Both the position numbers and the translations under genes were made by a program. 61,246 nt of DNA from Candidatus Gottesmanbacteria bacterium RIFCSPLOWO2_01_FULL_42_22 (GTDB lineage Bacteria > Patescibacteriota > Microgenomatia > 2-02-FULL-39-11), in NCBI GenBank assembly GCA_001779315.1, contig MFJU01000035.1, positions 1-61,246 on the forward strand, written 5' to 3'. A model generated the notes under the pieces. It worked only from the letters and a program-made list of their open reading frames with translations, did not search any database and was not told the origin of the DNA. This document shows, piece by piece, positions 33,286 through 61,246 of the stretch; the stretch's first letter is position 1, and each line of letters starts with the position of its first letter.

Positions 33286-34203
33286 TTAGTTTGATAGTGT
33301 GCCGTGAAATTCATTTATGACTTTCTTAAGATATACCATTTTCCGATTTCCGCTTCTTCCCCTTCTTATTTTCCAAAAAAATAATCTTAACAAACTGCCC
33401 AGATATAGCATCCGGATACCGGTTTTGGCGTATATTTCGTTGTGATATTTCCTTAAATATTTGTATAAGCTTCTTAAATAATAAGCGCCGTCAGTCACTC
33501 CTCCCGAACTTTTTTTACCATAATGGAAAACCAGAATTTCGGGATCAAAAATTATCCGATAACCCGATTTTCGGACTCTGCGGCATAAATCCAAATCCTC
33601 AAAGTACAGAAAAAACCTATTATCCATACCGCCTATTTTATGAAAAACATCCTTTCTGACGGCAAAATATGTACCTTCGACAGCTTCCACACGTTGTGTT
33701 TGACTGTAAAGTACCGGATTGGCTTTAGATTGAGGCAGAAACGGCAATAGTTTATAGAGAAAGCTCTGCTCGAGGAAAATATTCCACAGCGATGGCTCAA
33801 AATTAACAGACAGTTGCAGTTTATTGCCGGGATTTATAATTTTCGGTCCGACTATTGCCGTATGCTTATCCGGGAAATACTTCTTAAGCCCCCTGAAAGC
33901 GGCAGGATCGGTTTCCGTATCCGGATTGACTATTACTAGCCATTTTCCGCTTGCCAATTTAGTTCCGAGATTTATACCTTCAGCATAGCCGTGATTTATT
34001 CCGTCATGGAAAATCCTTGCTCCTTTTATTGAGTCATAGCCTTTTTTATGCCCATCGTTGATGACTATGATGATTTCCAGTGACAAATCTGCTTTTTCAG
34101 CAGACTTTTTCAGGCTCCTGGCGCAGTTTCCGAGATATTTTTGGCTGCGAAAGCAAACGAGGACTGCTGATAAGTCAGGTTTTCGCATATGATTTGATTT
34201 CAA
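33286..34203 (-). CDS. GT2-family glycosyltransferase with a C-terminal hydrophobic helix.
   Basis: 305 aa with LSAVLVCFRS, IIIVINDG, FEDLDLCRRVRKSGYRI and the C-terminal helix MLYLGSLLRLFFW. Confidence 0.85.
   Translation of the reverse strand: MKSNHMRKPDLSAVLVCFRSQKYLGNCARSLKKSAEKADLSLEIIIVINDGHKKGYDSIKGARIFHDGINHGYAEGINLGTKLASGKWLVIVNPDTETDPAAFRGLKKYFPDKHTAIVGPKIINPGNKLQLSVNFEPSLWNIFLEQSFLYKLLPFLPQSKANPVLYSQTQRVEAVEGTYFAVRKDVFHKIGGMDNRFFLYFEDLDLCRRVRKSGYRIIFDPEILVFHYGKKSSGGVTDGAYYLRSLYKYLRKYHNEIYAKTGIRMLYLGSLLRLFFWKIRRGRSGNRKMVYLKKVINEFHGTLSN
33309..33368. repeat. Right copy of the 60-bp imperfect direct repeat, inside the 3' end of the intact GT2 gene.
   Basis: ATTCATTTATGACTTTCTTAAGATATACCATTTTCCGATTTCCGCTTCTTCCCCTTCTTA matches 30978-31037. 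Confidence 0.85.
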
Positions 34204-35332
34204 TCAGCTTTAAGTAATTCTTAATCTGAATTGGCCAGGAATATAGTTTTGCCAGATTAATCCTCTTCTGCCTCAAAATTAGGCTATTTTCATTTATGGC
34301 TATTTGACAGTTTTTAACAAATTCCTGAGAAGTTTTGGCCGTATAAATCAACTTTTTCTTTTTAAGTTCAGACAGTGAAGGCATATCGGAAGCCACCACC
34401 GGAATTCCACAGGATAAATATTCCATCACTTTTACCGGGTAGGCAGCCTGGCCGTAGCTGTTAAGTTTATAAGGAATAATTCCGAGATTAAATCTTTTAA
34501 TATATTGCGGAATTTCTTCTTTCTTTTTTAGTCCCAGATAATAAAAATTAGGATATTTTCCAACATAATGCCTAATATTGAAAACTTCATCCCTGATTAT
34601 TCCGATCAGTACCAGGGATGCGTCAGGTATTGTCTTCATGAGCTCTTCCAGTAGTTCCTCCCAGATTTTATTTTTAAAAGTAATTGATCCGGCAAAACCG
34701 ATTATCGGTTTGGGAAGCTTTCTTAAATCATCGGGGATTTCAGTTATTCCTCTGACGAAGAATTGCTCAATTTCAACAGGAGTCGGAAAGAGGGATATTC
34801 TTTTTTTTGAGGCAATAAATTTTTCTTTAAGTTTCTCCGAAACGACAATTATTTTTCGGCATCTGGCGACAGCTTCTTTTTCCAAAAATTTCAGCTGCTT
34901 TCTGGCAAAAAAATTATTCCACCACGGTAAAGCGCCATATTCATCCAAAACATGATAAATCAGCGGGATTCTCCCGGGGTTCGGTAGGAAAGCCGCTTCA
35001 GGAGTCAGAGATATAATCAAATCATATTTTTCCTTCAGTAAATAAGTCAACAGCCAATAATTGAGAAGATGGTTCAGGAGATTAAAAAGAATGAATGTTT
35101 TGCCAAAGGGAAATACAGCGAAGGAATGAAAGACAGTCAGGCGTTGATTTAAATTCTCTATAAGCTTGTTCCTTTTTGCCAAAAGGGTTAAAGTGCGGTT
35201 TATCCTGGGAAATTCAAAAACAGTCACGTTATAATAGCGGGAGAGGTGGAGAGGAAGATAGTGTTCTATCTGGTCAATCTGACTGTTATAATTATCTCCG
35301 ATAAACGCTAAAATATTTTTCTGTCTATGCAT
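34175..35332 (-). CDS. GT1/GT4-like glycosyltransferase (GT-B fold).
   Basis: It carries FAGSITFKNKIWEELLEEL and VKVMEYLSCGIPVVASDMPSL. It is a paralogue of 56103-57215. The ATG at 35332 agrees with the paralogue's N-terminus; the track uses the GTG at 35359. Confidence 0.75.
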   Translation of the reverse strand: MHRQKNILAFIGDNYNSQIDQIEHYLPLHLSRYYNVTVFEFPRINRTLTLLAKRNKLIENLNQRLTVFHSFAVFPFGKTFILFNLLNHLLNYWLLTYLLKEKYDLIISLTPEAAFLPNPGRIPLIYHVLDEYGALPWWNNFFARKQLKFLEKEAVARCRKIIVVSEKLKEKFIASKKRISLFPTPVEIEQFFVRGITEIPDDLRKLPKPIIGFAGSITFKNKIWEELLEELMKTIPDASLVLIGIIRDEVFNIRHYVGKYPNFYYLGLKKKEEIPQYIKRFNLGIIPYKLNSYGQAAYPVKVMEYLSCGIPVVASDMPSLSELKKKKLIYTAKTSQEFVKNCQIAINENSLILRQKRINLAKLYSWPIQIKNYLKLIEIKSYAKT

Positions 35333-36550
35333 ATCCTGCAAATCAATAAATTTTATCACATCGTCGGCGGTGTAGAACGGTATTATCTCGAACTTTCAAA
35401 TCTACTGGAGAAAAAAGGCCACCAGGTTGCCTATTTTTCCATGGATCACCCGCGCAATTATAAAACAAAATGGTCGAAGTACTTTGTCAGTAACGCCTCT
35501 TTTACAAAACCCCGTTTTGGCCGGAGTATAAATCTCTTTTCCCGCATGATATATTCCCGTGAATCCAGAAGTAGAATAGCTAGATTATTAGATGATTTTC
35601 AGCCCGACATTGCTCATCTTCACCAGATTTATCATCATATTTCCCCGTCAATTCTATTGGAATTAAAAAAAAGAAAGATTCCGATTGTCCATACAGTTGG
35701 CGATTTTCATTTAATTTCTCCCCATCATAACAACTTATTTCACCAAGACCATATTTGTGAAGTCTCCAAACCGCACAAATATTACCAGACAGTTATTCAT
35801 AAATGCATCAAGAATTCATATTTGGCCAGCTTTGCCGAAAGCTTAGAACAGTATTTCCATTATTTCCTGAAGATATATCAAAATAATATTGATTTGTTCA
35901 TATCGCCAAGTGAATTTATGACAACGAAGTTGGTCGAGTACGGTATACCTTCTCAGAGGATTAAGATTCTCCCCTACTTTGTTGATTACCGAAAATACCA
36001 CCAAAGTCGAAAAATCGGAAGTTATATCCTTTATTTCGGTAGGTTATCAGAAGAGAAAGGATTGAAATTTTTGGTTGAGAATGTAGGACGATTACCTAAT
36101 GTCAAACTTATCATTGCCGGAGAAGGACCTCTTGGAATTGAATTGAAAAATATGATAAAGGTAAACAAATTCAGAAATATTGAAATAAGATCAGAATTTA
36201 TTCCCGAATCTGATTTGAAAAAAATCATCAGTGAATGTCGCTTTATAGTTTACCCTTCCCAATCATATGAAATCTTCGGGATATCACTTCTTGAAGCTTA
36301 TGCTTCAGGAAAACCGGTTCTGGCAAGCAGAATCGGGGCACTTCCGGAAATTGTTAAAAACGGCGAAACGGGTTTATTGTTTGAAGTCAACAATCATGAC
36401 CAATTCCGAAAAAAACTCCTAAAGTTATGGCAAAATCCAAAATTATTAAAATTAATGGGAAGAAATGGTCGTATGCTAGTAGAAAAAAAATTTAGTCCGG
36501 AGTTACATTATAGTCAATTGAAAGAAATATATCAGGAAATTATCGACTAA
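35327..36550 (+). CDS. GT4-family glycosyltransferase.
   Basis: 407 aa with FGRLSEEKGLKF and EIFGISLLEAYASGKPVLASRIGALPEIVKNGETGLLF. It is a paralogue of 57223-58485. Confidence 0.85.
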   Translation: MHILQINKFYHIVGGVERYYLELSNLLEKKGHQVAYFSMDHPRNYKTKWSKYFVSNASFTKPRFGRSINLFSRMIYSRESRSRIARLLDDFQPDIAHLHQIYHHISPSILLELKKRKIPIVHTVGDFHLISPHHNNLFHQDHICEVSKPHKYYQTVIHKCIKNSYLASFAESLEQYFHYFLKIYQNNIDLFISPSEFMTTKLVEYGIPSQRIKILPYFVDYRKYHQSRKIGSYILYFGRLSEEKGLKFLVENVGRLPNVKLIIAGEGPLGIELKNMIKVNKFRNIEIRSEFIPESDLKKIISECRFIVYPSQSYEIFGISLLEAYASGKPVLASRIGALPEIVKNGETGLLFEVNNHDQFRKKLLKLWQNPKLLKLMGRNGRMLVEKKFSPELHYSQLKEIYQEIID

Positions 36551-36559
36551 TCCGAATTA

Positions 36560-37654
36560 ATGAGAAAACACCGAAAAAGGCTGTTTATTATTTTGCTTAT
36601 TATATTCCTCGTGATCAGTTTGGAAGTATTTTTCCGATACCTCTTTCTGCAAACGTCCTTCCTGGATAATCATTACGTTAACAATGATGCCTGGTGGAGA
36701 TTAAGATGGATTAGAAACAGAAGATATGTTGAAGAAGATGTCGCCAATTATTTTTCCATATACCGTTACGATAAAATTTTAGGTTGGAACCCCAGATCAA
36801 ATTTAAAAAATCACGATATTGGAAAAGGAGCTTTTTTAACTACCAATTCAGTAGGAATAAGAGATGATAAGGAGTTTAGTAAGTTGAAGCATGAAGGAAA
36901 AACCAGAATTCTGATATTGGGCGACTCTTTTTCTTTTGGTGAAGAAGTTTCAGATAACCAGACGTTTTCTTATTTACTGGAACAATTACTAACTGAATCA
37001 GAAGTCATTAATATGGGGGTTGGTGGATATGGTCATGACCAAATGTTCTTAAAACTTAAAACAGAAGGAATAAAATATCAACCCGATATGATTATTGTGG
37101 GATTTCTCGAAAGTGATATGGATAGAAACATTCTTTCTTTTCGTGATTACAGCAAGCCGATTTTTACATTAATCAATAATGAGATTATTACTGCAAACAA
37201 TGAAATTCCTGAAGTGGATGAAATTTTAAAAAGAGAAGCATTCAAATTTAAAATTGCTGATTTTTTTTCCTTATTAAGTTCAAAAATAAGAGAGAGACAA
37301 ATAAAAGCGGAAATGGAAGAAATGACAAAGGCTATTTTGGATTTTATGACAAAGACGTCAATGGAAAATAAATCTCAGATACTATTTGTCTATTTGCCTG
37401 TTTCGAAAGAGATTTTCACAGATAACAGGAATATGGGGGAAGAATTTTTTAAAGAATATTGCCGGTCGACTCGGAAGAAATATCAGAACGGTTTTAATTG
37501 TTTTGATTTGCGTCCAGTTTTCAGAGAAGCCTCAAATAAAGGGGATAAATTCCGTGGCGGACATTTTCCTGGTCATTATGATGTTCTGGCTCATGCTTTA
37601 ATAGCCAATTCAATTAAAAATTTTTTAGTTCAATATAATTATTTTCCCTATTGA
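36560..37654 (+). CDS. Membrane-anchored SGNH/GDSL-family hydrolase.
   Basis: 364 aa with an N-terminal TM helix, ILILGDSFSFGEEV and GVGGYGHDQ. Confidence 0.75.
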   Translation: MRKHRKRLFIILLIIFLVISLEVFFRYLFLQTSFLDNHYVNNDAWWRLRWIRNRRYVEEDVANYFSIYRYDKILGWNPRSNLKNHDIGKGAFLTTNSVGIRDDKEFSKLKHEGKTRILILGDSFSFGEEVSDNQTFSYLLEQLLTESEVINMGVGGYGHDQMFLKLKTEGIKYQPDMIIVGFLESDMDRNILSFRDYSKPIFTLINNEIITANNEIPEVDEILKREAFKFKIADFFSLLSSKIRERQIKAEMEEMTKAILDFMTKTSMENKSQILFVYLPVSKEIFTDNRNMGEEFFKEYCRSTRKKYQNGFNCFDLRPVFREASNKGDKFRGGHFPGHYDVLAHALIANSIKNFLVQYNYFPY

Positions 37655-37779: not shown

Positions 37780-39207
37780 ATGAAAACATTGGAAGCATCT
37801 CATGGGAATAATGAGATATATTCCGGAATTCCGGATTTTGCTTTAAGGCCAATAGAAGGAATAAAGCCAATAGACGTGGATGGAAGAGAAATCCTTGAAT
37901 ACGGATTCAGTTTAGGTCAAGGTATGAGGAAATTTCATAGAGCGACAGAAGGAGAATTTGAACGTATTACTTTTGAATCTGATAATTCAAAGTACGAATT
38001 AAAAGGAATAAATGAAAAAACCGCAAAAGGGTTTATTGATTGGTTAGACGGTGCTGTCCAGATTTCCGAGAATGGACCAAAAGTCGCTGCGATACTTGGA
38101 GGTGGAGGAGCTATATACTACGGATATAAAACTCTTCCGTTGACAACAAGAAAAGAATTTCTTCATAACGGTTTAAAAATACTAAAAATGGGTGCATTAG
38201 GAGTCTTGGGTGGATTTCTAGCCGGATGCACCGCCCAGGAAGCAATGGCTCAAATCGCTGCTACATTGGGATTAGAAGGAACATCTGAGGCAGTGACAGC
38301 GACTGCGATAGCAAACGGTCAGATTAAACCGACTGAAACACCGCAGGTATTTCAAACTGCAACAGGATTTGTCCAGGTTAGTCAAACTCCTGAAGGTCAA
38401 ATTACTATTAATTCATCTCCTACTCCGACATTAATACCTACTGAAACCTCGAGTCCGACACTGACTATTACACCCACAGCTACCGAGATTTTAGTTCCCT
38501 CCTGGGAATTTTCAAGTCCACAAACTACATTAAATGAGAATACACAATTAGAATGGAATCCGAACTTATGGTTTCATAAGCATATAAACCCGCCAGGAGT
38601 TGGAGAAATCGAATTACAAAAAGATCCCCAAATTGGAGATATATTGCATTATAATGTTATTAGTGAACTTGACCGGGGTGCACCTTTTTGGAATCAGATG
38701 GTATTGATGGGACCTACTATTCGACCGCCTTTAGAAATTGAAATTCCGATTTGTATCAACGATTTGTATTATCAGGGTAATTTATTAACTGTATGGAATG
38801 ACACTTCTTTTTTTAATGAATCCGTAAAAAAAGGTACGGAACTTGAAAATGTTGAAAGTATTTTATTTGCTATTGACTTGGAAAACTATATGCCACGGTT
38901 AGTTGCGCATCCTGCATATTGGAAATATGGGACTACTGATGTTGTGAGGAGTAGAAAAAAACTCGTTCCGGAACAATGGAATTTATTTAAAATAAAATTA
39001 GATGAGACTGGTACTGCCCGTTTTATTTTGAGTGATGAGGAAATCGGTTCTGTAAATGTAAATCAAATTCCTCCTGATGTAAATTCCGATCCTGATCTAA
39101 ATGGCGGGATTGGTATTAGAGGAGTGCATGGGGGAGAACACAGTAGTGATTTAAAGCCGGGAGCTACAGTCGATAATGGTCCAATAAAAATCACCAGTTT
39201 TGCATAA
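37780..39207 (+). CDS. Hypothetical surface protein with an internal signal/lipobox-like segment and a Thr/Pro linker.
   Basis: 475 aa. A hydrophilic region of about 120 aa precedes TTRKEFLHNGLKILKMGALGVLGGFLAGC. This is followed by SSPTPTLIPTETSSPTLTITPTATE and a C-terminal domain of about 230 aa. Confidence 0.65.
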   Translation: MKTLEASHGNNEIYSGIPDFALRPIEGIKPIDVDGREILEYGFSLGQGMRKFHRATEGEFERITFESDNSKYELKGINEKTAKGFIDWLDGAVQISENGPKVAAILGGGGAIYYGYKTLPLTTRKEFLHNGLKILKMGALGVLGGFLAGCTAQEAMAQIAATLGLEGTSEAVTATAIANGQIKPTETPQVFQTATGFVQVSQTPEGQITINSSPTPTLIPTETSSPTLTITPTATEILVPSWEFSSPQTTLNENTQLEWNPNLWFHKHINPPGVGEIELQKDPQIGDILHYNVISELDRGAPFWNQMVLMGPTIRPPLEIEIPICINDLYYQGNLLTVWNDTSFFNESVKKGTELENVESILFAIDLENYMPRLVAHPAYWKYGTTDVVRSRKKLVPEQWNLFKIKLDETGTARFILSDEEIGSVNVNQIPPDVNSDPDLNGGIGIRGVHGGEHSSDLKPGATVDNGPIKITSFA

Positions 39208-39364: not shown

Positions 39365-40354
39365 ATGACTAACTTTAAAAAAATATATCTTTTTATATTT
39401 ATTTCTTTTTTACTATTGTTAGTTTTCATTTTGTCAATAAATGTTACTAATAAATATAAGAAGCGAATAAATTCACTTTCAAATGAAAATTATTCATATG
39501 AAATAAATAAAAAGAATAATACTTTTGGTAATTCAGAACTGACTTCCTTTTATGAACCTAAACCAAATTCAACCGAAAATATTACTGCGGATTGGCTTGG
39601 ATATGAAATAGAAATTACTATGAATAATGATGGTTTAAATGACAGATATGATTACGAATTATATAAGCCATTGAATACTTTCAGAATTGTAACTCTTGGT
39701 GATTCACATACATATGGAGTATATTTAAAAACACAAGATAATTGGTCAGAAAAATTGGAAGATATATTAAATAGGCAATTAAATTGTCCTCAATATAAAA
39801 AATTTGAGGTTATTAACTTAGGGGTACACGGTTATGATTTAATGTATTCATTCGAACGATTTAAAAAGCGTGGTTTAAAATATAATCCCGATCTTATAAT
39901 TTGGTTTGTTAATAATTGGAATTTTCAAAATATAAATGAATATTATTATCCAAGACGGGAGGAATTGCTGAAAATGGGATATAAAGATTTTAATGGAAAA
40001 AATTCTAAATTTGAGATATCGGAAAAAATATTTAAAGAATTACCAGAAATGTACGGCAAAAATGGTATATTGGATTATCAAAAAAAAGTAATAGACAATT
40101 TGAGAGTTGTTTTTAAAAATAGATTATTATTTGTTAGTTATAATGATTTGGGAAAAACTAGTGAAGAATTTTTTGAAGATTTCACTAAAACAGAAAAGAG
40201 AATTTCTTTTTTAAAGTTATCTTTCAATTCAAATTCATCCCAAGAATTATTTTTTCCTGACCGGCATCCTAACCAGAAGGGACATTTTAAAATTTCTGAA
40301 GAGTTATATAAAAATTTAATAAGCTCCACTCTTAAAGGGTGTATTACAAATTAA
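39365..40354 (+). CDS. Membrane-anchored SGNH/GDSL-family hydrolase (AT-rich block).
   Basis: 329 aa with an N-terminal TM helix, IVTLGDSHTYG and FPDRHPNQKGH. Confidence 0.7.
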   Translation: MTNFKKIYLFIFISFLLLLVFILSINVTNKYKKRINSLSNENYSYEINKKNNTFGNSELTSFYEPKPNSTENITADWLGYEIEITMNNDGLNDRYDYELYKPLNTFRIVTLGDSHTYGVYLKTQDNWSEKLEDILNRQLNCPQYKKFEVINLGVHGYDLMYSFERFKKRGLKYNPDLIIWFVNNWNFQNINEYYYPRREELLKMGYKDFNGKNSKFEISEKIFKELPEMYGKNGILDYQKKVIDNLRVVFKNRLLFVSYNDLGKTSEEFFEDFTKTEKRISFLKLSFNSNSSQELFFPDRHPNQKGHFKISEELYKNLISSTLKGCITN

Positions 40355-41934
40355 TTATAAAAAAAGTACTTCCATATTTATTAATCGGATCATTTTTTTC
40401 TTTTATTTACTTTATAATTTCAACTCTAAATTTGGAAGCACAGGGACTTTATTACGACGAAGTTTCATTTGCACCCGCCGCATTAGTTTTTAGAGGTATA
40501 AAATCTGAATATTCAGTATTTTATTCATTTAACGGATTCCCCTTATTTATTACTTCATATCAAGGAGCGATATTAAGTTATATATACGGATTATATCTGC
40601 TTCTATTTAAAACATCTTTTTCTATAGCTAGTTGGCGGATGTTTAATCCTTTTATATGGAGTATAACAATTTTAATTTTCTCGATTTTATGTGTCCGTTT
40701 AATTAAACCAGTTCAATTATTTGTTTTTCTATTTCTATTAATCTCGGATGTATCTTTACTGCTCTCTTTCAGATTTAATTTTGGTCAGGTTTTAATTCCT
40801 GTAATTGCCAGTTTATTTATTATTTTGTTTGCTCTAAATGCAGTTAACAAAAATAAACTGAGATTTTTAGATTATTTTATACCTTGTTTCTTGCTTGGTC
40901 TTGCAATTTATGCCAAATTAAGTGCTATTATGTTGCTGATTCCAACTACCTTGATAATTTTATTCTTGATTTATAAAAAAATAGCTAATTTATATAATAT
41001 TCTAATATCTTTAACCGGATTAATTTTAGGGGTTTTACCCGTGATCGTTTTGAATTTGAATTATTTAATTAAGGATAAAAAATTTTTTTCATTAATAAAC
41101 ACAGAACAAAATCACTTTTTAAGTGCTTCAGTTTTTTTTATAAAACTTTATAATTTTTTGTCAATCGGAACTGGTAATACTTTAGTAAAATCCATTTTTG
41201 CTGAAAGTTTATTTAAATTAAATATTCATACAGAAATTATTCTATTATTACTGATAATTATTATTTTTAGCTATTTATTCATTCGTGGAAGTAATTATTT
41301 TTTACCTTATTTTTTTCTGAGTAGTTGGATAACGATCTTCCTGTTCTTATATCTTCTCCCTATGGATACTTTTATATACCATTATTTATTTGCCGTACCA
41401 TTCTTGTACATTTCGATCTCGATTTCTTTAAATATTTCTAATTTAAAGTATAAGCGAACTAGGTATGTATATGTTTTATTTTTAATATTTCTAAGTTTTT
41501 TGACTATAAATAGAATATTGAATTATTCAAATGTATTAAACAAATTGTCTAAGGGATCTTATTCTGAAATATTTCATCCTGAATACACAACTCTGGCTAA
41601 ATTAGCATCTCAAAAGGCAACTGATTCAGTTTTTATTGCTGCCGATTGGGGTTTTGGCATTCAAATATATTTATTTTCTAATGGAGCAGAAAAGGCAGTT
41701 TACGAACCTTTTTGGAATTATAATAGTATTGATCAATTAGAAAATACTATATTAAATAGTGGTAAGAAATACCTTTATTTGGTAAATCATCGTGCTCCAT
41801 CAAACATTCGGAAAGAGAATACTATTAAAATAATGTCTGATATTAATAAAATAAATTTTTTAACTCAAGTAGAAATTGAACAGGAATTTAAAAATCTGAA
41901 ATTATTCAAAATAAATAAATATAAAATTATCTAA
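40339..41934 (+). CDS. Polytopic membrane protein, GT-C-fold glycosyltransferase-like.
   Basis: 531 aa with more than 10 hydrophobic helices. The acidic motif GLYYDEVSF follows TM1, and there is a C-terminal soluble domain. Confidence 0.55.
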   Translation: MYYKLIIKKVLPYLLIGSFFSFIYFIISTLNLEAQGLYYDEVSFAPAALVFRGIKSEYSVFYSFNGFPLFITSYQGAILSYIYGLYLLLFKTSFSIASWRMFNPFIWSITILIFSILCVRLIKPVQLFVFLFLLISDVSLLLSFRFNFGQVLIPVIASLFIILFALNAVNKNKLRFLDYFIPCFLLGLAIYAKLSAIMLLIPTTLIILFLIYKKIANLYNILISLTGLILGVLPVIVLNLNYLIKDKKFFSLINTEQNHFLSASVFFIKLYNFLSIGTGNTLVKSIFAESLFKLNIHTEIILLLLIIIIFSYLFIRGSNYFLPYFFLSSWITIFLFLYLLPMDTFIYHYLFAVPFLYISISISLNISNLKYKRTRYVYVLFLIFLSFLTINRILNYSNVLNKLSKGSYSEIFHPEYTTLAKLASQKATDSVFIAADWGFGIQIYLFSNGAEKAVYEPFWNYNSIDQLENTILNSGKKYLYLVNHRAPSNIRKENTIKIMSDINKINFLTQVEIEQEFKNLKLFKINKYKII

Positions 41935-46897: not shown

Positions 46898-46937
46898 TTT
46901 CTTGCAACCCGGCTTTTTTCAGCTAAAATAGCTGGTG

Positions 46938-52490: not shown

Positions 52491-52699
52491 TTTGACTGTT
52501 TCAAATAATAGTCAATCAGGAGAAATTTGCCGGGATCGAGTTCTTTTTTAATTCCGGGCAGGTGTTTTTTTAGTTTAGCTTTGGGAATTCCTGTTAAATC
52601 ATTATAATTAATTTTTCGGATCAGATATAATTCCCACTCACTGTTGGTAACAGGTTTCCAATTGTTATCTAAATTATAGTCCCAGATGCGCGGTTTCAT
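52487..52699 (-). CDS. Small (70 aa) hypothetical protein translationally coupled to the AbiEii-like gene.
   Basis: It has a 4-nt ATGA overlap with the downstream gene. No recognised motif. Confidence 0.55.
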   Translation of the reverse strand: MKPRIWDYNLDNNWKPVTNSEWELYLIRKINYNDLTGIPKAKLKKHLPGIKKELDPGKFLLIDYYLKQSK

Positions 52700-54001: not shown

Positions 54002-55183
54002 TTAATCTTCAGGTTGAATAACAATCTTTTCTGATCTCCAATAACTTCTTATTTGCCGGAAATAGACAAGGGCAAAGATTAGCGTGAGAATAATCGAGAT
54101 AAGCGGATTTTTGCTGACGTTTATTAAAGGAATGCCTGTCAATCCGTAAAAAAAAGAAAGGTTGGTAAAATTAATCAATTCGCTCATCAGAAGAAGGATG
54201 ATGGTGTGAAGATTCGGATTTCTCAAAAAAAGCATAAGGCTTAATATGACCGGTATATAAAAATGGTTTTCATGAACTGCCGGAGAGATCATGAAGTAGC
54301 TAAAAAAGACAAGCTGGCCGCTCAACAGGAAGAAATTAAATCCTGACCGATTTTTCAATTTTCGGGTAAATTGAATCAGGATTCCCGTATAAACCAGCAG
54401 AAAAATCAGTCGTCCGCTAAACATCAACGAATAGAAGGGATTGTTTTTGCTTATTTCTAAAAAATATACTCCTGCCTGGTTCGGCAGCGCCCTCCCGGAT
54501 GATATCAGGTATTGGGTTACCAGCCAGGGCAGATTGAGGGCAGCAGACAGGATGGGATCGTTCAAAGCACCTGACAGGAATAATTTTAAAGTGGTGACAG
54601 GATCAGCTTTAAACCAAATTAATATAAATTGGGGAACGATCATGCCTACTAGGAAAATCCCCGGTTTGAATAGCCCGTTTTTGCCTTTTTGGGAAAAAAA
54701 GAGATAAACAAGGATAAGCGGCAGGAGGATGACAGGTTGCCATTTGAAAAAACAAGCCAAACCGAATAAAAGTCCGGCCGGGAAATGTTTATTTCTGGAG
54801 AGCAAAAACAGTGATCCGATCAGCTGGGGCAGGAAAAAGACATCAGTATAACCTAAACCCTGCGAATTGATGATTAATGAGGGAAGTCCGAGATAAACAA
54901 CCGCTGTGATCAAGCCGGGATGAAAGATCAATAAAACTGCCAATCCCAAAAGATAAAATGAGAAAACGGTGATTTTAAAAAGGAGGTGAGGATTAATATT
55001 TACGGGAGCTATTCTGCCTAAAACGTAGACTATCAGAAAATGCCCCGGAGGATAGGTAGCCGGATAGAAGACACCGCAGCGGTAATTCAAACACTCCGGA
55101 AAAAGGGAAGAATCAGGATTTGTGCGGACATAATTTATAAGTCTCGTCCAGTTATCGACATCACCGGTGCCTTTGGCCGGCAA
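54002..55183 (-). CDS. Polytopic membrane protein, GT-C/DUF2029-like, possibly 5'-truncated.
   Basis: 393 aa with a TTG start. It begins in a hydrophilic loop (PAKGTGDVDNWTRL) rather than a TM helix and has no obvious SD sequence. Confidence 0.5.
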   Translation of the reverse strand: MPAKGTGDVDNWTRLINYVRTNPDSSLFPECLNYRCGVFYPATYPPGHFLIVYVLGRIAPVNINPHLLFKITVFSFYLLGLAVLLIFHPGLITAVVYLGLPSLIINSQGLGYTDVFFLPQLIGSLFLLSRNKHFPAGLLFGLACFFKWQPVILLPLILVYLFFSQKGKNGLFKPGIFLVGMIVPQFILIWFKADPVTTLKLFLSGALNDPILSAALNLPWLVTQYLISSGRALPNQAGVYFLEISKNNPFYSLMFSGRLIFLLVYTGILIQFTRKLKNRSGFNFFLLSGQLVFFSYFMISPAVHENHFYIPVILSLMLFLRNPNLHTIILLLMSELINFTNLSFFYGLTGIPLINVSKNPLISIILTLIFALVYFRQIRSYWRSEKIVIQPED

Positions 55184-55215
55184 CAGGCGGATATTAAGAA
55201 TTAAGAGGAAAATAA

Positions 55216-56106
55216 TCAGCGTGATATAAACAAGCTTTCGCGTATAGCCTCCGTAAGAAAGTTAATTTTTTTCCGATTCCCCAAAACTGACCAGAGAATC
55301 AGTCTGATTAATGACCCGAAAGCAAAAATAAACAGGGAAAGTATGACATAAAGCTGATTATGGTATTTCCCGAGAATTTTTTTTAATGATTTGACATAAA
55401 GAGAGCCGTCTGTTTGCCCGCCGGTTGAAGCATGGGGAAAATGAAAAGCTGCGGCAGCAGGTTGGTAGATAATTTCAAAGCCGGCCCGCTTTATCCTGCG
55501 GCAGAGGTCAACATCCTCAAAATAAAGGAAAAAGCGCTCATCAAATCCGCCGGCCAGACGGTAGGCTTTTTTCTGAAACAGCCAGCAAATAGCCGCTGCT
55601 GCGGAGACTTTTTGTTTTTTCTGATAGAGGAGTTTATCCGAAAACGGTAAGCGGAAAATAGAGGGAAACAGCCGGTAAAGGAAACTTTGTTCCAGAAATA
55701 TCTGCCACAAGGAAGGTATCGGCAGGATTGTTTCCTGTGTTTGATCGTTAATTAATATCCGCGGAGCAATGATGCCTATTCTGTCAGCTGTTTCCTTTAT
55801 CAGGATTTTAAGGGAATTGTCTTTTAGCTCCACATCCGGGCAGAGCAGAAGAACCCATTTATTTTTCACTGTTTCCATGGCCGAATTGACGGCTGTCCCC
55901 AAACCGCCGTTTTCAGAAAGATTCAGAATTTTTATGCCTTTCTTTAAATTGACCGGCAGGGAAAGCGAAGTAGCATTGGCAACGACAATTGTTTCCGTTT
56001 TTAATCCAGCTTTATGGCATGCCAGCTTTAAAGCTTTCAGACAGCGGGGTAATAATTTCTTGTCATTCTCTACCGCGACAATAATAACTGAAATTTCCAT
56101 TCTCAA
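55216..56106 (-). CDS. GT2-family glycosyltransferase (paralogue of 33286-34203).
   Basis: 296 aa with ISVIIVAV, FEDVDLCRRIKRAGFEI and the C-terminal helix LFIFAFGSLIRLILW. Confidence 0.85.
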   Translation of the reverse strand: MRMEISVIIVAVENDKKLLPRCLKALKLACHKAGLKTETIVVANATSLSLPVNLKKGIKILNLSENGGLGTAVNSAMETVKNKWVLLLCPDVELKDNSLKILIKETADRIGIIAPRILINDQTQETILPIPSLWQIFLEQSFLYRLFPSIFRLPFSDKLLYQKKQKVSAAAAICWLFQKKAYRLAGGFDERFFLYFEDVDLCRRIKRAGFEIIYQPAAAAFHFPHASTGGQTDGSLYVKSLKKILGKYHNQLYVILSLFIFAFGSLIRLILWSVLGNRKKINFLTEAIRESLFISR

Positions 56107-57215
56107 TTTTTTAAAAGTTTAATTAAATATTTTTTTTGAGCCGGCCAGCTTTGAGACAGAGCCTCTTTTATCCTGGCTGATTTAAGAGAGGGGTTTTCTT
56201 CCGTCACCGCTTTTTTGAGATTGAGTATAAATTCGCGGTCTGTTTTTGACCAGTAGAGTAAGCGTCTGTCTGCCTGATTTTTAAGAGCAGGCAGGCTGGT
56301 TGAAACAACAGGTAAGCCAAAGCGGAAATATTCGTTGACTTTGACTGGATAAGCATATCGGCCGTAAGTATCGGTTTTATACGGGATAAGTCCGGCTGAG
56401 AAATTGGCCAGATATGAGTCAAGTTCATGATCTTTTTTATAACCTAAATAATGAAAATTAGACAATGGTAATTTAGTTTGTGCTTGGCCGATAAAAACAA
56501 AGGAATATTGGGGATAGGCTTTTAAAAGTGAGATCAGAAATTCAGGATCCGTCCTCCAATCGTATAGACCGCCGGCAAAACCGACATATGGCGGTTTCAA
56601 CCGCGCCAAATCCTCCGGTATCCTCCCCGCGATTTTATTTTCTGAAGGAAAATCTATAGGTGTGGGAAAATGAACGACTTTTGGATGAAGTTTGCGGTAG
56701 CGTTCATATAAAGGCCAAGATGAGGTGATTACCAGACCGGCTTTTTTCAAAAACTGTTTTTCAAGATAGCGGAAGTGTCGTTGTGAACTGGGATGTTTCC
56801 AGGCCGGCAGGGACGGATAATCATCCACAACAAAATAAATAATTTTGGCAGCCTTACCCAAAATCTCAGGCAAAAACACGGCTTCCGGGGTAAAGGTAAG
56901 CAGAATTGTTTGTTTTAAACTGTTTTTTATATCCCTCGGTAAAATCAGCCGGTTGAAGCCATGATTCAGGCGATTTAGCCATAGACACTGCCGGGCAGAG
57001 GGAAGACCGAACGAGTGGATAATTTTTAAGTGATGGTTTATTCTTTCAACAAGGGAGTAGCGGCCTATCAGAAGATGAAGGAGGTTTTTAAAGCGGGGAT
57101 ATTCCACCCCCGTCACCTCAAAGCTGTCAGAGAGTTTCCGGCAGACAGCCTCTTCGATCCGGGGTAATCCTTCCTGAAAGGTACCGCCGATTAAAACTAA
57201 TAAGGGTGTCATCAA
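56103..57215 (-). CDS. GT1/GT4-like glycosyltransferase (paralogue of 34175-35332).
   Basis: 370 aa with FAGGLYDWRTDPEFL and VKVNEYFRFGLPVVSTSLPAL. Confidence 0.75.
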   Translation of the reverse strand: MMTPLLVLIGGTFQEGLPRIEEAVCRKLSDSFEVTGVEYPRFKNLLHLLIGRYSLVERINHHLKIIHSFGLPSARQCLWLNRLNHGFNRLILPRDIKNSLKQTILLTFTPEAVFLPEILGKAAKIIYFVVDDYPSLPAWKHPSSQRHFRYLEKQFLKKAGLVITSSWPLYERYRKLHPKVVHFPTPIDFPSENKIAGRIPEDLARLKPPYVGFAGGLYDWRTDPEFLISLLKAYPQYSFVFIGQAQTKLPLSNFHYLGYKKDHELDSYLANFSAGLIPYKTDTYGRYAYPVKVNEYFRFGLPVVSTSLPALKNQADRRLLYWSKTDREFILNLKKAVTEENPSLKSARIKEALSQSWPAQKKYLIKLLKN

Positions 57216-57222: not shown

Positions 57223-58485
57223 ATGAATATACTTTATGTCAATAAATTTTTCCATCTGGTCGGAGGTGTGGAAAGATATTTTCTGGAATTGGATCGGCTC
57301 ATGAGGAAAAAAGGCCATCAAACAAGCCTTTTTTACATGCAGCATCCCCTGAACAACCGCTCCAAATGGCAAAAATACAGCGTCAGCCAAATCTCATTCC
57401 ATGATCCGGGATTGACAAAAAGATGGCGGCAATTGGCCAGACTGTTCTATTCAATCGAAGCGCGTTCAAAAATTAGCGCTCTGATTGAAGAAACTTCTCC
57501 TGATATTGTTCATCTGCACACCATCTATCATCATCTCTCCCCCTCTATCATTTTGGCTGTTAAAAAAAGAAATCTCCCCCTTATCCAGAATCTGGGCGAT
57601 TACCATCTGGTATCGGCCAATTACAATCTTTTCCATAACGGAGCGATTTGCGAAATCTCCCAAGGGGGGAAATTTTATAAGGCTTTTTTCCACCGCTGTG
57701 TCAAAAATTCATATTATTACTCTTTGGTTGAATCAGCCGAGAAATATCTTCAGGCACTTTTAGGTTGGGAAAAAGGACTGGTTGATCTCTTTATCGTGCC
57801 TTCGCTTTTTATGAAAAATAAACTGCTTGAATACGGTCTTCCGGAAAACAAAATCACCTGCCTTCCTCATTTTATTGATACCGGTAAATATAAATATTCC
57901 GGCAGACAGGGCAGCTATCTTCTTTATTTTGGCCGGCTTTCCGAGGAAAAAGGACTGAAATTTCTTCTGGAAGTTATGAAAGAGCTGCCGCAAATCAAAT
58001 TGAAGATTGCCGGTACCGGTCCTGAAGAGGATAACCTGAAGGATTTCGTCCGTGGGCATAAATTGAAAAACGTCACTTTCCTGGGATTTCTTGAAGGTCA
58101 AAACCTGATAAAAACAATTGCCGGAAGCTTGGCGGTTATCGTTCCTTCGCTTTGGCCGGAGGTTTTCGGCATGTCAGTTTTGGAGGCTTATTCTTTGGGC
58201 AAACCGGTCATTGCCGCCGATTCAGGCGCCCTTCCTGAATTGGTTAAGGATAATCGGACCGGTTTTCTATTTAAAACTGCCGATAAAGAAGATATTCTGG
58301 AAAAAATAAAATTTTTGCTTAATCAGCCTGCCCTTATTAAAAAGATGGGAAAAGAAGCGTTAAAAATTGCTGGTGAAGACTACAGTCCCGAACTACACTA
58401 CCGGAAAATTATGAAAATTTACGGAAATTTTGCCGCTGGGAAGAAATTAAAAGGCAATTTCAGTCCCGGGAAGGGATTTTTTTAA
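57223..58485 (+). CDS. GT4-family glycosyltransferase (paralogue of 35327-36550).
   Basis: 420 aa. MNILYVNKFFHLVGGVERYFLEL parallels MHILQINKFYHIVGGVERYYLEL. It also carries EVFGMSVLEAYSLGKPVIAADSGALPELV. Confidence 0.85.
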   Translation: MNILYVNKFFHLVGGVERYFLELDRLMRKKGHQTSLFYMQHPLNNRSKWQKYSVSQISFHDPGLTKRWRQLARLFYSIEARSKISALIEETSPDIVHLHTIYHHLSPSIILAVKKRNLPLIQNLGDYHLVSANYNLFHNGAICEISQGGKFYKAFFHRCVKNSYYYSLVESAEKYLQALLGWEKGLVDLFIVPSLFMKNKLLEYGLPENKITCLPHFIDTGKYKYSGRQGSYLLYFGRLSEEKGLKFLLEVMKELPQIKLKIAGTGPEEDNLKDFVRGHKLKNVTFLGFLEGQNLIKTIAGSLAVIVPSLWPEVFGMSVLEAYSLGKPVIAADSGALPELVKDNRTGFLFKTADKEDILEKIKFLLNQPALIKKMGKEALKIAGEDYSPELHYRKIMKIYGNFAAGKKLKGNFSPGKGFF

Positions 58486-59307
58486 ATTGTTTATGGACTC
58501 CTGGTCGATCTGATTTCCCAAAAGGTCCAAAACTTTCAAATTAGTCATGTTTTTTAAGACTTCAGGCACGCTTGTCAGCTGGTTATCACTCAAATATAAA
58601 ACGCCCAAACCGCTCAGCTGTCCGACGGCTGCCGGCATTCTGCTGAATTTATTATTGCCTAAGAATAATGACCAAAGCCCGGACAGATTTCCGATTGTCT
58701 CAGGCAATTCGCTTAAATTATTGTAACTTAACTCCAAAGATTCCAGGGTTTTTAGGTTGCCGATTTCGGGAGGAAGAATGTTTATGCTATTCCAACTGAC
58801 ATTGAGATCGGTCAAAGCAGGCAATTGGTCTATGCCTATCGGAATTTCCGTAATTTGATTGGCGGAGAGGTCGATACGGGTTAAGGAAGGCATTTCCAGC
58901 AAAACCGGCGGGAACTGCTCAATTTTATTATCGTTGAGGATTATTTCCTTAAGTCTGGTTAAATTAGCCGTCTGAGACGGTAAAGAAGTCAAAAAATTAT
59001 AGCTTAAGTCTAAATATTCCAGATTGGTCAGGGTAAATACTTCATCCAATACGGTTTCCAAACTCCGTTTTGAGAGGTTTAGTTTGCAGACAGCCGCCGG
59101 ATTTTCCAAAGCTTTGTCCAAAGAATCAAAATCATATAGTGTTTCATCACTGCAATTTGAAGAAGTAATAGGATTTTCCTGCTGAACAGATACCTCGTCG
59201 GTGGCATTGGGGTTTTGGAAATAAACATAGGCAATTCCGGCAATGATCGAGAGAATTACGAAAACTGTTGTTAAAAGAAGATATTTTTTTTCGCTCATAA
59301 CGCTCAT
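58447..59307 (-). CDS. Membrane-anchored leucine-rich-repeat (LRR) surface protein.
   Basis: 286 aa with an N-terminal TM helix, a Cys-containing cap (CSDETLYDFDSLDKALENPAAVC) and about 8 repeats of about 23 aa (LxxLxLxxNxLxxLPxxIgxL). Confidence 0.8.
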   Translation of the reverse strand: MSVMSEKKYLLLTTVFVILSIIAGIAYVYFQNPNATDEVSVQQENPITSSNCSDETLYDFDSLDKALENPAAVCKLNLSKRSLETVLDEVFTLTNLEYLDLSYNFLTSLPSQTANLTRLKEIILNDNKIEQFPPVLLEMPSLTRIDLSANQITEIPIGIDQLPALTDLNVSWNSINILPPEIGNLKTLESLELSYNNLSELPETIGNLSGLWSLFLGNNKFSRMPAAVGQLSGLGVLYLSDNQLTSVPEVLKNMTNLKVLDLLGNQIDQESINNLKKSLPGTEIAF

Positions 59308-59346
59308 AAATTTAGTATAGCATAGAATAAAATAAGCATGTCAAGC

Positions 59347-60150
59347 TTAAAAAACAGACGGAAGTTCAATTTGCTGAAGCAGAGGCAGTTTCGGTAATTG
59401 CGGCGCTTCTTTGAAGGGATTGTTTTTCATATGCAGCACTTCGAGATTTTTTAATCCATTAATGACAGAAGGTATCTCTGAAAAGAGGTTGTCATTTAAA
59501 TATAATTCCCGAATGGGTACACGATTTAAATTAGCTGGTAAGTCTTTCAGCTGATTGCCGGTTAATTCCAGACTCTTTAAATTTTCCAAATCCCCCATCG
59601 AATCCGGCAACGAAGCCAGCTGGTTCCGGTTCAAAGACAGGAAGTTTAATTGTTTAAGCTCTCCGATTGACAGAGGTATGCCGGTCAGCCGGTTAAAGCC
59701 CAGTTCCAGTTTGGCCAACGAGGCAAGCTTAGTCAAAACCGGCGGCATTTCCGTAAACAGATTGTCGCCAAGGTCAATTTCCTTAAGTTTTTTCAGATTT
59801 TCCAGTCCATCCGGCAAACTTGTCAGACGGTTGCCGTGAAGATCGAGGATTTCCAGATTGGTTAAAAGCAGCAGTTTATCGGGAAAGTCGGTCAGATTTT
59901 GGCCGGCGGCTGAATAGCGGCAGATTTTTTCAGGGTTGGCCAGGACGTCATTAATATCCCGGTAGACTGTCAGATCGCTGCATTTATCAGGATTAAAGGC
60001 TTCAGAAGGTTTGGATTGCTTATTTAAAAACAAATCTTCGGCAAAATGTTGGTAAAGCGTGGAAACCCGGCTGACATAAAGAATTGATGACAGGCTGATC
60101 AATAGTATAATGGCAGAAAGCCAATCAACATTTCTGGTCAGTTTTTTCAT
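59347..60150 (-). CDS. Membrane-anchored LRR surface protein (tandem paralogue).
   Basis: The architecture is the same (CSDLTVYRDINDVLANPEKIC cap plus LRRs). I prefer the start at MKKLTRNVDW (60150), because the track start at 60213 would overlap asnB. Confidence 0.75.
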   Translation of the reverse strand: MKKLTRNVDWLSAIILLISLSSILYVSRVSTLYQHFAEDLFLNKQSKPSEAFNPDKCSDLTVYRDINDVLANPEKICRYSAAGQNLTDFPDKLLLLTNLEILDLHGNRLTSLPDGLENLKKLKEIDLGDNLFTEMPPVLTKLASLAKLELGFNRLTGIPLSIGELKQLNFLSLNRNQLASLPDSMGDLENLKSLELTGNQLKDLPANLNRVPIRELYLNDNLFSEIPSVINGLKNLEVLHMKNNPFKEAPQLPKLPLLQQIELPSVF

Positions 60151-60159
60151 CAAATACAT

Positions 60160-61246
60160 ATGTGCGGTATTGCCGGCAAATTGCATTTTAAACCCCATAA
60201 ATTCGGGAGGCAAGCAGAATTATCCCGGATAAAAAAAACACTGCAAATTCTTAAACACCGCGGGCCGGATGACCGGGGTTACTTTCTCGGGCAGAATATC
60301 TGGTTAGCTGCTGCCCGTTTGGCTATTATCGATTTGTCCCCGAAAGCGCACCAGCCGATGGTTTCCCGTGACGGCAATCTGGTTTTGGTTTTTAACGGTG
60401 AAATTTATAATTACCGGGAGATACGGAAAACACTTAAAGACAGGTATAATTTTAATTCTGAAAGCGATACGGAAGTACTGTTGGCTCTTTACCGGGAATA
60501 CGGAGTCGATTGCCTTAAGTTTCTGCGGGGTATGTTTGCTTTTGCCCTGTGGGATAAAAGATTAAGCCGCCTTTTTCTGGCGCGGGACCGTTTGGGAAAA
60601 AAACCTCTGAAATATCATATTGACGGCAAATTTCTGGTTTTTGCTTCCGAACTTAAGGCTTTTATCAATTCTCCCGGAGTCCCGAAAGAAATTGATTATC
60701 AGGCTCTTTCGGATTTTATCTCCCTAGGTTACGTGCCTTCCCCTAATACCGGTTTTAAACAGATAAAAAAACTTCCTGCTGCCCATTATCTTTTAGCTGA
60801 TGCTTCAGGCCGGATATTTATTAATCGTTATTGGCAGCCCCAATATGAACCAAAATTTGATATGCCCCAAGCCGACAGATTAACTTTGATTAAGAATAGT
60901 TTGACTGAAAGCATAAGGTTGCGCTTAAGAAGCGATGTGCCTCTGGGTTTTCACCTGTCAGGAGGTACTGATTCAACTTTAATTGCAGCTTTAGGATCAA
61001 GGATTGCCAAAAAGAAAATAAAAACCTTTACCGTCGGTTTTGAATACGGATATATGGATGAATCAGAAAACGCGCGTGAGACAGCTCTATTGATTGGGAG
61101 TGAACATCATGAAATAACAGTCAAAGAAGACAGTCTTAATCATTTACCCGAAATCATCAGGGCATATGAAGAGCCTTTTGCCGATGCTTCAATACTGCCA
61201 ACCTGGGCTTTAATGAAAGAAACCGCAAAATACGTGACCGTCGCTC
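60160..61246 (+). CDS. asnB: Asparagine synthase (glutamine-hydrolysing), N-terminal about 362 codons. It runs off the right edge and is not in the ORF track.
   Basis: My own translation from the ATG at 60160 reads MCGIAGKLHF...RLAIIDLSPKAHQPMVSRDGNLVLVFNGEIYNYREIRK...SDTEVLLALYREYG...LRGMFAFALWD...SDVPLGFHLSGGTDSTLIAA. It has the Cys2 nucleophile and the SGGxDS PP-loop. Confidence 0.85.
   Translation, partial: MCGIAGKLHFKPHKFGRQAELSRIKKTLQILKHRGPDDRGYFLGQNIWLAAARLAIIDLSPKAHQPMVSRDGNLVLVFNGEIYNYREIRKTLKDRYNFNSESDTEVLLALYREYGVDCLKFLRGMFAFALWDKRLSRLFLARDRLGKKPLKYHIDGKFLVFASELKAFINSPGVPKEIDYQALSDFISLGYVPSPNTGFKQIKKLPAAHYLLADASGRIFINRYWQPQYEPKFDMPQADRLTLIKNSLTESIRLRLRSDVPLGFHLSGGTDSTLIAALGSRIAKKKIKTFTVGFEYGYMDESENARETALLIGSEHHEITVKEDSLNHLPEIIRAYEEPFADASILPTWALMKETAKYVTVA

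Follow-up and report, generated by a model that had tools for sequence, protein, structure and literature searches.

A stretch of 61,246 nucleotides from Candidatus Gottesmanbacteria bacterium RIFCSPLOWO2_01_FULL_42_22 (contig MFJU01000035.1; hereafter the window) carries a large surface-glycan locus from position 33286 onward. The locus encodes six polytopic proteins of the GT-C glycosyltransferase kind (one of them a probable member), a Wzy_C protein of the O-antigen ligase/polymerase family, two sets of other glycosyltransferases and several putative glycan-modifying enzymes. It continues for at least 10 kb beyond position 61246, and thus spans more than 38 kb in all. An earlier note on this DNA had described a surface-glycan locus unusually rich in GT-C enzymes plus a Wzy_C protein, and the gene families found here agree with that description. 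We tentatively read the whole locus, its extension past 61246 included, as an island for assembling and decorating cell-envelope glycans in a monoderm bacterium of the Candidate Phyla Radiation (CPR), and would put the chance of this at a little under even.

The gene set comes from a Pfam run on open reading frames (ORFs) of at least 100 aa between 33 and 61 kb, and from precomputed Pfam matches for the next 10 kb of the contig, directly past the window's end at 61246 (the flank, or L007); the first 33 kb of the window received a partial Pfam scan. Transmembrane (TM) helices were counted as Kyte-Doolittle hydropathy peaks. An alternative genetic code was ruled out, as 12 of the 46 ORFs end in TGA and code 11 fits.

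Six GT-C-like membrane proteins

The six polytopic proteins, here called A to F, are encoded at 40339-41934 (A, plus strand, 531 aa), 43391-44662 (B, plus strand, 423 aa), 44667-46139 (C, minus strand), 49115-50623 (D, minus strand), 50627-51811 (E, minus strand) and 54002-55261 (F, minus strand). Four features of GT-C enzymes were considered: a polytopic topology (about 8-13 TM helices), Asp or Glu directly after the first helix (TM1), a match to a curated family and the three-dimensional fold. Hydropathy gives eight peaks each for A, C, D and E, about ten for B and five strong ones for F. All six acidic motifs that the earlier note had placed after TM1 are there, and the acidic residue is invariant in every family alignment we built: D40/E41 of QGLYYDE in A (71 sequences), D35-Q36-W37 of YDDQWW in B (five sequences), D31, the D of E-x-D-Q, in C (LLLESDQ) and D (LSLETDQ; eight sequences) and D34 of GTGDV in F (GTGDVDNW; nine sequences). 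The PLYDDE of E is kept in three sequences, including those of the related loci L017 and L022 described below.

Five of the six can be tied to a curated GT-C model. The Pfam search proposed in the earlier note places D in PMT_2 (37.3 bits, cut-off 26.1) and E in DIE2_ALG10 (51.4 bits, cut-off 27). C scores 19 bits with PMT_2 and is a paralog of D (37% identity, E = 3e-85). F, at 21 bits, falls just under the GT87 cut-off of 25, and two of its homologs (35-38% identity) score 32.9 and 31 bits. The link is transitive for A, which has no Pfam match of its own. A word-indexed homolog search with A returned only A itself, while an exhaustive search gave 372 representative clusters of full-length relatives; in the 71-sequence alignment, PMT_2 is matched by 12 members (best E = 1.8e-6), PMT_4TMC by two and DUF6056 by one. 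A 10-sequence subset of this alignment was used to search for related loci. As the A family occurs in Omnitrophota, Bacteroidales, Chloroflexia, Terriglobia and others, it is not CPR-specific.

Structure prediction, also proposed earlier, succeeded for F and gave a weak match for B. The AlphaFold model of F, built on the nine-sequence alignment, has a mean pLDDT of 80.5, a pTM of 0.85 and about 11 membrane helices. Its top 12 PDB matches in Foldseek are all GT-C proteins (PIG-M, ALG6, ALG3, PimE, ArnT, PIG-U, AftB and STT3), with TM-scores of 0.5-0.6 (maximum 0.60) at probability 1.0 to PIG-M, ALG6, ALG3 and PimE. B has five homologs, and all DUF6057 matches are sub-threshold (21 bits for B itself). 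Its AlphaFold 2 model has a pLDDT of 61, and the Foldseek matches of highest probability are AglB, AftA, AftB and ArnT at E-values of 0.04-1 and TM-scores of at most 0.41. When A, B and F were compared with PDB chains by sequence and by profile, nothing useful came back; as this was so even for F, whose fold clearly matches GT-C structures, the outcome carries no weight. Likewise, hhalign comparisons of our own family profiles (B vs A, B vs F, A vs PMT_2, F vs PMT_2) stayed below 3% probability throughout, and are uninformative here because the F vs PMT_2 control fails too. We conclude that A, C, D, E and F are GT-C glycosyltransferases and that B is a probable one, given its weak fold match and gene context. 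The GT-C hallmark claimed for all six thus stands for the five that pass independent tests, and as a probability for the sixth. A and B represent GT-C-like families without a curated Pfam model, of which the B family is rare. None of the six proteins has a TPR C-terminal domain.

The listed ORF of F begins at TTG 55183, 3' of the stretch encoding TM1, and gene callers give a protein of 393 aa. TM1 (KLVYITLIIFLLILNIRLL; 55237-55184) lies in the same frame further upstream, within a stretch that is bounded by TAA 55264-55262 and TTG 55183, contains no ATG, GTG or TTG and overlaps the 3' end of the upstream gene GT2b. This helix aligns with TM1 of all homologs and is modelled at a pLDDT above 90, and in comparison with the 77%-identical relative L017 the stretch has three synonymous changes and one conservative change in the F frame. 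Hence the stretch appears to be translated, presumably starting at a non-canonical codon; ACG 55243 (4 nt after GGAGG 55252-55248), ATC 55225, CTG 55219 and ATT 55216 are near-cognate candidates. A GT2b-F fusion through a -1 frameshift at the A-run 55270-55264 was rejected, since the -1 frame immediately meets TAA 55264-55262.

Wzy_C proteins and accompanying glycan enzymes

The full locus contains three Wzy_C genes, one in the window (46935-48278, plus strand; PF04932, 71.8 bits against a cut-off of 31.7) and two in the flank. The window protein has about nine TM helices and a weak local match to the WaaL structure 7tpg (E = 0.0017). It is followed on the same strand by p275 (48291-49118, plus strand), an N-terminally anchored protein with no Pfam or NCBIfam match, and a second Wzy_C gene in the flank (pair at 8189-6033 of L007) is followed by a gene of the same type. 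The members of this unannotated, N-terminally anchored p275-type family are about 250-275 aa long; p275 and p251 of the flank are 26% identical. On the other side of the window Wzy_C gene lies p250 (46145-46897, minus strand), which is N-terminally anchored, belongs to no Pfam or NCBIfam family and is co-transcribed with C, upstream of it.

A triplet of GT2, GT-B and GT4 glycosyltransferase genes is present twice, the copies being 36, 34 and 47% identical, respectively. The first consists of GT2a (33286-34203, minus strand; Glycos_transf_2, 42.7 bits), with one C-terminal amphipathic or hydrophobic helix, the TuaH-like GT-B enzyme TuaHa (34175-35359, minus strand; Glyco_trans_1_4, 44.6 bits; NCBIfam TuaH, 87.7 bits against a cut-off of 550) and the divergently oriented GT4a (35327-36550, plus strand; Glycos_transf_1, 114 bits). 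The second consists of GT2b (55216-56106, minus strand; Glycos_transf_2, 39.4 bits), directly upstream of F and with one C-terminal TM helix (residues 254-272), TuaHb (56103-57215, minus strand; Glyco_trans_1_4, 28.7 bits; TuaH, 45 bits) and GT4b (57223-58485, plus strand; Glycos_transf_1, 129 bits).

Several further genes point to glycan modification. A S-adenosylmethionine-dependent methyltransferase (MTase) is encoded at 52746-53516 (plus strand; Methyltransf_11, 74.6 bits), and an AsnB-type glutamine amidotransferase of 615 aa begins at 60160 and runs past the window's end (plus strand; GATase_6, 158 bits; Asn_synthase, 118 bits). The two GT2, four GT-B, methyltransferase, AsnB and Wzy_C genes listed in the earlier note are thus all present. 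Its SGNH esterases are borne out in part: SGNH2 (39365-40354, plus strand), an N-terminally anchored esterase or acyltransferase, matches Lipase_GDSL above cut-off (26.4 bits), while SGNH1 (36560-37654, plus strand; one N-terminal TM helix) has a weak, sub-cut-off match to Lipase_GDSL_2 (19.5 bits). The two are paralogs (32% identity over 112 aa). AlgX-like matches were seen on relatives of these proteins only, namely in L015 and at 11461-12522 of the window (ALGX, 41 bits). The latter protein follows a tyrosine recombinase (Phage_integrase, 152 bits) in a plus-strand pair at 10447-12522, which lies far from the glycan locus among housekeeping genes (gyrA, gyrB, H+-pyrophosphatase, Lgt).

Between A and B, on the minus strand (41927-43246), lies a gene for a polysaccharide lyase with one N-terminal TM helix. 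It matches Alginate_lyase (PF05426) with 223 bits over 275 of 275 profile positions, and its PDB matches are 3nfv (1e-59) and 8bdq (3e-47). These entries are named "alginate lyase family protein"; the CAZy family to which they belong is, we take it, PL38. The enzyme could trim a polyuronide of the cell itself or attack a host exopolysaccharide.

A conserved core and a low-GC island

Related loci were compared in Ca. Gottesmanbacteria bacterium GW2011_GWA2_43_14, the only syntenic genome in the GTDB representative set (L015 and L022, which together show the core with its surroundings over 23 kb), and in L017, from a closer relative. The seven genes MTase-E-D-p275-Wzy_C-p250-C occur in the same order in GW2011_GWA2_43_14 (35-61% identity) and in L017 (54-93% identity), and because this order is kept we regard the locus as acting as a unit. 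The Wzy_C orthologs are 37% (L015) and 85% (L017) identical and those of p250 35% (L015), 70% (L017) and 27% (L020, a further related locus). C has orthologs in L015 and L017, and the MTase ortholog (61%) adjoins E in L022. In L015, the SGNH2 ortholog adjoins an A-type GT-C gene, and beyond the core come a further two PMT_2 genes, three for SGNH proteins and another two for polytopic proteins; the richness in GT-C genes is thus a property of this lineage's locus.

D also occurs with identical neighbours on the 118,780-bp contig Ga0209211_10000254 (JGI 3300025308), of which the window is positions 118087-56842, reversed, as well as in the metagenome-assembled genomes GCA_001779135.1 (MFJH01000033.1) and GCA_001779415.1 (MFKC01000045.1) and in several ENA groundwater assemblies.

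Part of the locus differs between relatives. The segment 39365-44662, which holds SGNH2 (GC 0.246, its first gene), A, the lyase and B, has a GC content of 0.24-0.30, against 0.36-0.45 in its neighbours and 0.43 in the first 33 kb. L017, otherwise 77-95% identical, is without this island and has a different PMT_2 gene at that place, and the counterparts of A and SGNH2 in L015 show no such drop in GC. Together these observations suggest that the island was recently acquired or replaced, by lateral turnover of GT-C cassettes. The GT-C type of the TuaH-GT2-GT-C module, present in both this genome and GW2011_GWA2_43_14, differs as well.

Toxin-antitoxin (TA) genes are embedded in the locus. An AbiEii toxin gene with an upstream 70-aa gene, probably an AbiEi-type partner (51813-52699, minus strand; AbiEii, 63.8 bits), is a TA module inserted into the locus and not a glycan gene. 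The solitary Pol-beta-type, MNT-like nucleotidyltransferase gene at 53566-53964 (plus strand; Polbeta, 62.9 bits), not found at the corresponding position in L017, is probably a TA or defence element rather than a glycan gene. An AbiEii gene also adjoins a Wzy_C+TPR gene in L020.

This turnover raises the question of whether the region is one system at all. It might be a variable hotspot in which independent small modules, such as GT2 with GT-C and Wzy_C with p275, have been gathered by duplication and lateral transfer to act on different acceptors, diversifying the surface coat and so, for example, allowing phage escape or changed host recognition. The duplicated triplet and the paralog pairs fit such a history, as do the low-GC island with its alternative PMT_2 gene in L017, the embedded TA modules and the varying GT-C type downstream of TuaH-GT2. 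However, the order of the seven-gene core is kept across 35-90% identity, as would be expected if at least one coherent pathway were present, and the hotspot explanation largely overlaps with the reading as an envelope-glycan island. We consider it unlikely as an account of its own.

Sugar donors

The earlier note had suggested that the two GT2 enzymes might be polyprenyl-phosphate-sugar synthases, and this was not supported. GT2a matches a single generic glycosyltransferase in the PDB (6p61) and no DPMS, GtrB or ArnC, and GT2b has no PDB match. The best NCBIfam relatives of both are HpsN, MftF, EpsD and a rhamnosyltransferase, all below cut-off. By sequence, the two would be chain-building enzymes of the WbbL/HpsN/EpsD kind, not DPMS/GtrB/ArnC-like ones. 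The same search does recognise genuine synthases: a GT2 beside a B homolog at another locus (L019) matches structures of DPMS (5mlz), GtrB (5ekp) and ArnC, with 5mlz, 5ekp and 9hwj at 1e-13 to 1e-15. Two other GT2s paired with F or B homologs are 31-33% identical to it (31% for the one in L038). Two distant B homologs (P0007 and P0005) each lie directly downstream of, and overlap, a small GT2 gene, and a distant F homolog likewise sits directly downstream of a small DPMS-like GT2. From these neighbourhoods we infer that the F and B families use polyprenyl-phosphate-sugar donors.

A tblastn search with the three DPMS-like GT2s found none in the whole window, the flank, L015, L017 or L022, and one in L020, within a DegT-MTase-GT2-PMT_2 string. 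In the present locus a GT-C gene directly follows TuaH-GT2 in two genomes, F in the window and in L017 and an A-type protein in L015, and the two parts are therefore likely to be functionally coupled.

Proposed role and acceptor of the glycan

On the reading that we favour, the two paralogous cytoplasmic sets (GT4, TuaH-like GT-B and WbbL/HpsN-type GT2) would build short glycans on a polyprenyl carrier, with the initiating enzyme and the flippase encoded elsewhere. Outside the membrane, the Wzy_C proteins, each paired with an anchored p275-type partner, would act on the polyprenyl-diphosphate-linked units as polymerases or ligases. Five to six GT-C enzymes, with their catalytic Asp or Glu in the first external loop, would add sugars from polyprenyl-phosphate-sugar donors that are made elsewhere. 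The SGNH proteins, the methyltransferase and AsnB might trim or modify the product, and the membrane-anchored PL38-like lyase may cut a uronic-acid polymer. CPR bacteria are without lipopolysaccharide. The most likely acceptor is a wall-associated, possibly uronic-acid-containing heteropolysaccharide with variable side chains; surface proteins are our second choice. The data establish the gene families, the GT-C fold of F, the conservation of the core and the lack of pilus linkage in relatives, while carrier, donors, acceptor and the sequence of steps are inferred. A polysaccharide is favoured because of the three Wzy_C genes, the TuaH-like GT-B enzymes, the PL38-like lyase, the SGNH proteins and AsnB, and because B-family homologs lie in polysaccharide loci with Wzm/Wzt or UDP-glucose dehydrogenase. 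The lyase, TuaH-like GT-B, AsnB and B-homolog contexts lean at least as much towards a polysaccharide as towards a protein acceptor.

Several points weigh against this reading. Among the ORFs of 33-61 kb and in the next 10 kb we found no initiating phosphoglycosyltransferase, Wzx, ABC exporter, Wzz-type regulator, LCP-type wall ligase or sugar-nucleotide gene (the earlier note, too, had seen no Wzx, Wzz or sugar-nucleotide synthesis genes), and tblastn over the whole window and flank gave no DPMS/GtrB-like synthase. With initiator, flippase and donor synthase missing, the pathway cannot be closed from sequence; other parts of the 118-kb contig, or of the genome, could encode the initiator, a Wzx flippase and a chain-length regulator. 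The TuaH similarity is far under the equivalog cut-off (88 vs 550 bits), and B is a probable GT-C enzyme, not a proven one (pLDDT 61, Foldseek E-values from 0.04 upwards). The segment that holds the lyase is low in GC and was probably acquired, and the enzyme may act on foreign polymers, for instance those of a host. Finally, relatives in PMT_2, GT87 and ALG10 include protein- and lipid-acting enzymes, so the families do not fix the acceptor.

An alternative is general protein O-glycosylation, in which PMT_2, ALG10-like and GT87-like GT-C enzymes, perhaps with a PglL-like Wzy_C, would act on Ser/Thr-rich exported surface proteins, after the model of actinobacterial PMT or Neisseria PglL. Acceptors could be an S-layer protein, the leucine-rich-repeat (LRR) proteins or a protein of 475 aa encoded at 37780-39207 (plus strand; no Pfam or NCBIfam match). 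The latter has a Gly-rich hydrophobic segment ending in LAGC, which resembles a lipobox, followed by a 110-aa stretch that is 38% Ser, Thr and Pro, and we regard it as a candidate for a surface protein that becomes O-glycosylated. An internal start at the LAGC lipobox would make it a lipoprotein, but the in-frame Leu codon is TTA, and ATG 38188 comes without a positively charged n-region or an evident ribosome-binding site. The LRR proteins are two N-terminally anchored paralogs (58447-60213, minus strand; LRR_8, 105.6 and 81.5 bits; 37% identical to each other; one TM helix each). They are likely surface-exposed with a binding role, which is of interest for host attachment by an episymbiont.

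D above the PMT_2 cut-off, C weakly and the A-family members in part are what such a system would contain; the gene for the Ser/Thr/Pro-rich protein belongs to the same string as A and has the same orientation, the locus includes two anchored LRR surface proteins, no polysaccharide export genes were found in 33-61 kb or the next 10 kb, and the Wzy_C family includes PglL and TfpO. However, the Ser/Thr/Pro-rich protein has no counterpart in L015 or L022, PMT_2 is broad and takes in ArnT-like, lipid-directed enzymes, and B-family homologs occur in polysaccharide loci. A PL38-like lyase, TuaH-like GT-B enzymes, AsnB and three Wzy_C genes would also be unexpected in a protein-only system. On balance we think protein O-glycosylation rather doubtful, though worth serious consideration, and retain envelope-glycan assembly as our reading.

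Distance from the pilus genes

The earlier note had placed the glycan genes next to the pilus genes and proposed a pilin or surface-protein glycosylation system. The pilus locus is real and comprises PilB, PilT, PilC, a prepilin-peptidase-like gene and seven pilin-like genes at 25393-29506. However, a 3.8-kb gap (29506-33286) parts the pilins from GT2a. It holds an ATPase gene (AAA_14 + DUF4143 by Pfam; 29639-30928, minus strand) and two TA pairs named from their translations, a HepT/MNT-like one (31631-32456, minus strand) and a PIN/RHH-like one (32516-33264, minus strand). A further ORF, at 31187-31495, is probably no gene; its translation is of low complexity.

Dedicated pilin glycosylation would require a Wzy_C like TfpO or PglL, or a GT-C enzyme like TfpW, to act on the pilins at 25393-29506. 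Both kinds of enzyme have pilin-modifying precedents: TfpO is a Wzy_C protein and TfpW a GT-C protein, each encoded immediately downstream of pilA (10.1101/2020.04.19.049825). Pilin O-glycosylation has moreover been predicted, though not shown, in Saccharibacteria (PMC11623550), and here a complete pilus locus, with its seven pilin-like genes, is found at a distance of 3.8 kb.

Against this, the Wzy_C and GT-C genes of the window are not immediately downstream of the major pilin gene (25393-25953) as tfpO and tfpW are: the Wzy_C gene is 21 kb from it, and some 11 kb separate the nearest GT-C gene (40339) from where the pilin cluster ends, with the ATPase and two TA pairs in between. The core recurs in two other genomes and TuaH-anchored relatives of the locus recur in L020-L034, and no PilB, PilC, PilT or pilin match was found in L015/L022, L017 or L020-L034 (views of up to 23 kb). 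A locus of more than 38 kb with three Wzy_C genes and at least six GT-C genes is also far beyond any known pilin system. Given the gap, the lack of pilus genes at the related loci and the adjoining position of tfpO and tfpW to pilA, adjacency is weak evidence; we regard dedicated pilin glycosylation as possible but unsupported, and very improbable.

The earlier note did not mention the lyase, the low-GC island, the TA genes, the duplicated triplet, the LRR proteins or the extension of the locus past the window. Beyond AsnB, that extension encodes a Wzy_C protein (462 aa), a p275-like protein, a GT4 (340 aa), an NTP_transf_5 protein with a weakly S24-peptidase-like N-terminus and then a Wzy_C protein fused to TPR repeats (543 aa), as well as a 744-aa protein without a family.

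Comparison with known systems

In several respects the locus resembles the GT-C systems that depend on polyprenyl-phosphate sugars, namely ArnC/ArnT, GtrB/Gtr, Ppm1/PMT, PimE and mycobacterial Aft/Emb. Its polytopic proteins carry an acidic residue in the first external loop; D belongs with PMT_2, E with ALG10 and the F homologs with GT87; the model of F superposes on PIG-M, ALG6, ALG3, PimE and ArnT; and homologs of F and B elsewhere are paired with DPMS/GtrB/ArnC-like GT2s. It differs in having no DPMS/GtrB/ArnC-like synthase or GtrA-type flippase in the window or flank, in clustering six different GT-C genes with Wzy_C genes, and in that the A and B families fall outside Pfam models. The organism is also a CPR monoderm in which no lipid A, arabinogalactan or phosphatidylinositol mannosides are known.

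Wzx/Wzy loci, including the tua operon of Bacillus subtilis, share with it the Wzy_C proteins, several GT4, GT2 and GT-B enzymes, the GT-B kind including one with TuaH as its best named relative, and the modification enzymes AsnB, methyltransferase and SGNH. In contrast to those loci, no initiator of the TuaA/WbaP/WecA type, Wzx (TuaB), Wzz (TuaF) or UDP-glucose dehydrogenase (TuaD) was found over 71 kb (the first 33 kb partly scanned). Nor is there an equivalog-level match to tua proteins (TuaH 87.7 and 45 bits, TuaC about 49 bits, against 550), and tua is without GT-C enzymes.

The pilin-modifying TfpO/PilO, PglL and TfpW of Pseudomonas and Neisseria belong to the same two superfamilies, and here too a type IV pilus locus lies on the contig. 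However, the genes for TfpO and TfpW adjoin pilA, while their counterparts here lie 11-21 kb away behind TA genes and include no GT-C with a TPR C-terminus, and the pilus adjacency is not repeated in relatives. With alginate loci (AlgL, AlgX/AlgJ) the locus shares a membrane-anchored polyuronide-lyase homolog and SGNH proteins, with AlgX-like matches in relatives; it differs in that the lyase is PL38-like rather than AlgL and lies in a compositionally foreign segment, and in that there is no Alg8/Alg44 synthase and no MBOAT protein (AlgI).

None of the components falls outside known superfamilies; the novelty lies in their conserved arrangement in a CPR lineage and in two GT-C-like families that have no curated models. 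Our literature searches turned up nothing on GT-C enzymes or Wzy_C proteins of CPR bacteria, and we know of no experimental knowledge of surface glycoconjugates in CPR/Patescibacteria. The practical gain is modest, in the form of targets for heterologous expression and for glycoproteomics of enrichment cultures. The locus also corrects the idea that closeness to pilus genes means pilin glycosylation.

Surface glycans are of interest in CPR bacteria, whose lifestyle depends on surface contact with host cells. A more speculative idea, which we think quite unlikely, is that Gottesmanbacteria-type CPR bacteria have a conserved but strain-variable battery of GT-C enzymes, the uncurated A and B families among them, which together with Wzy_C/p275 pairs lays a diversified glycan coat on surface proteins, type IV pili included. 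Swapping GT-C cassettes would then let these episymbionts adjust how they attach to hosts or escape phages. For the biology of this lineage, the locus provides a seven-gene core to test, two uncurated GT-C-like families and an example of the turnover of GT-C cassettes between close relatives.

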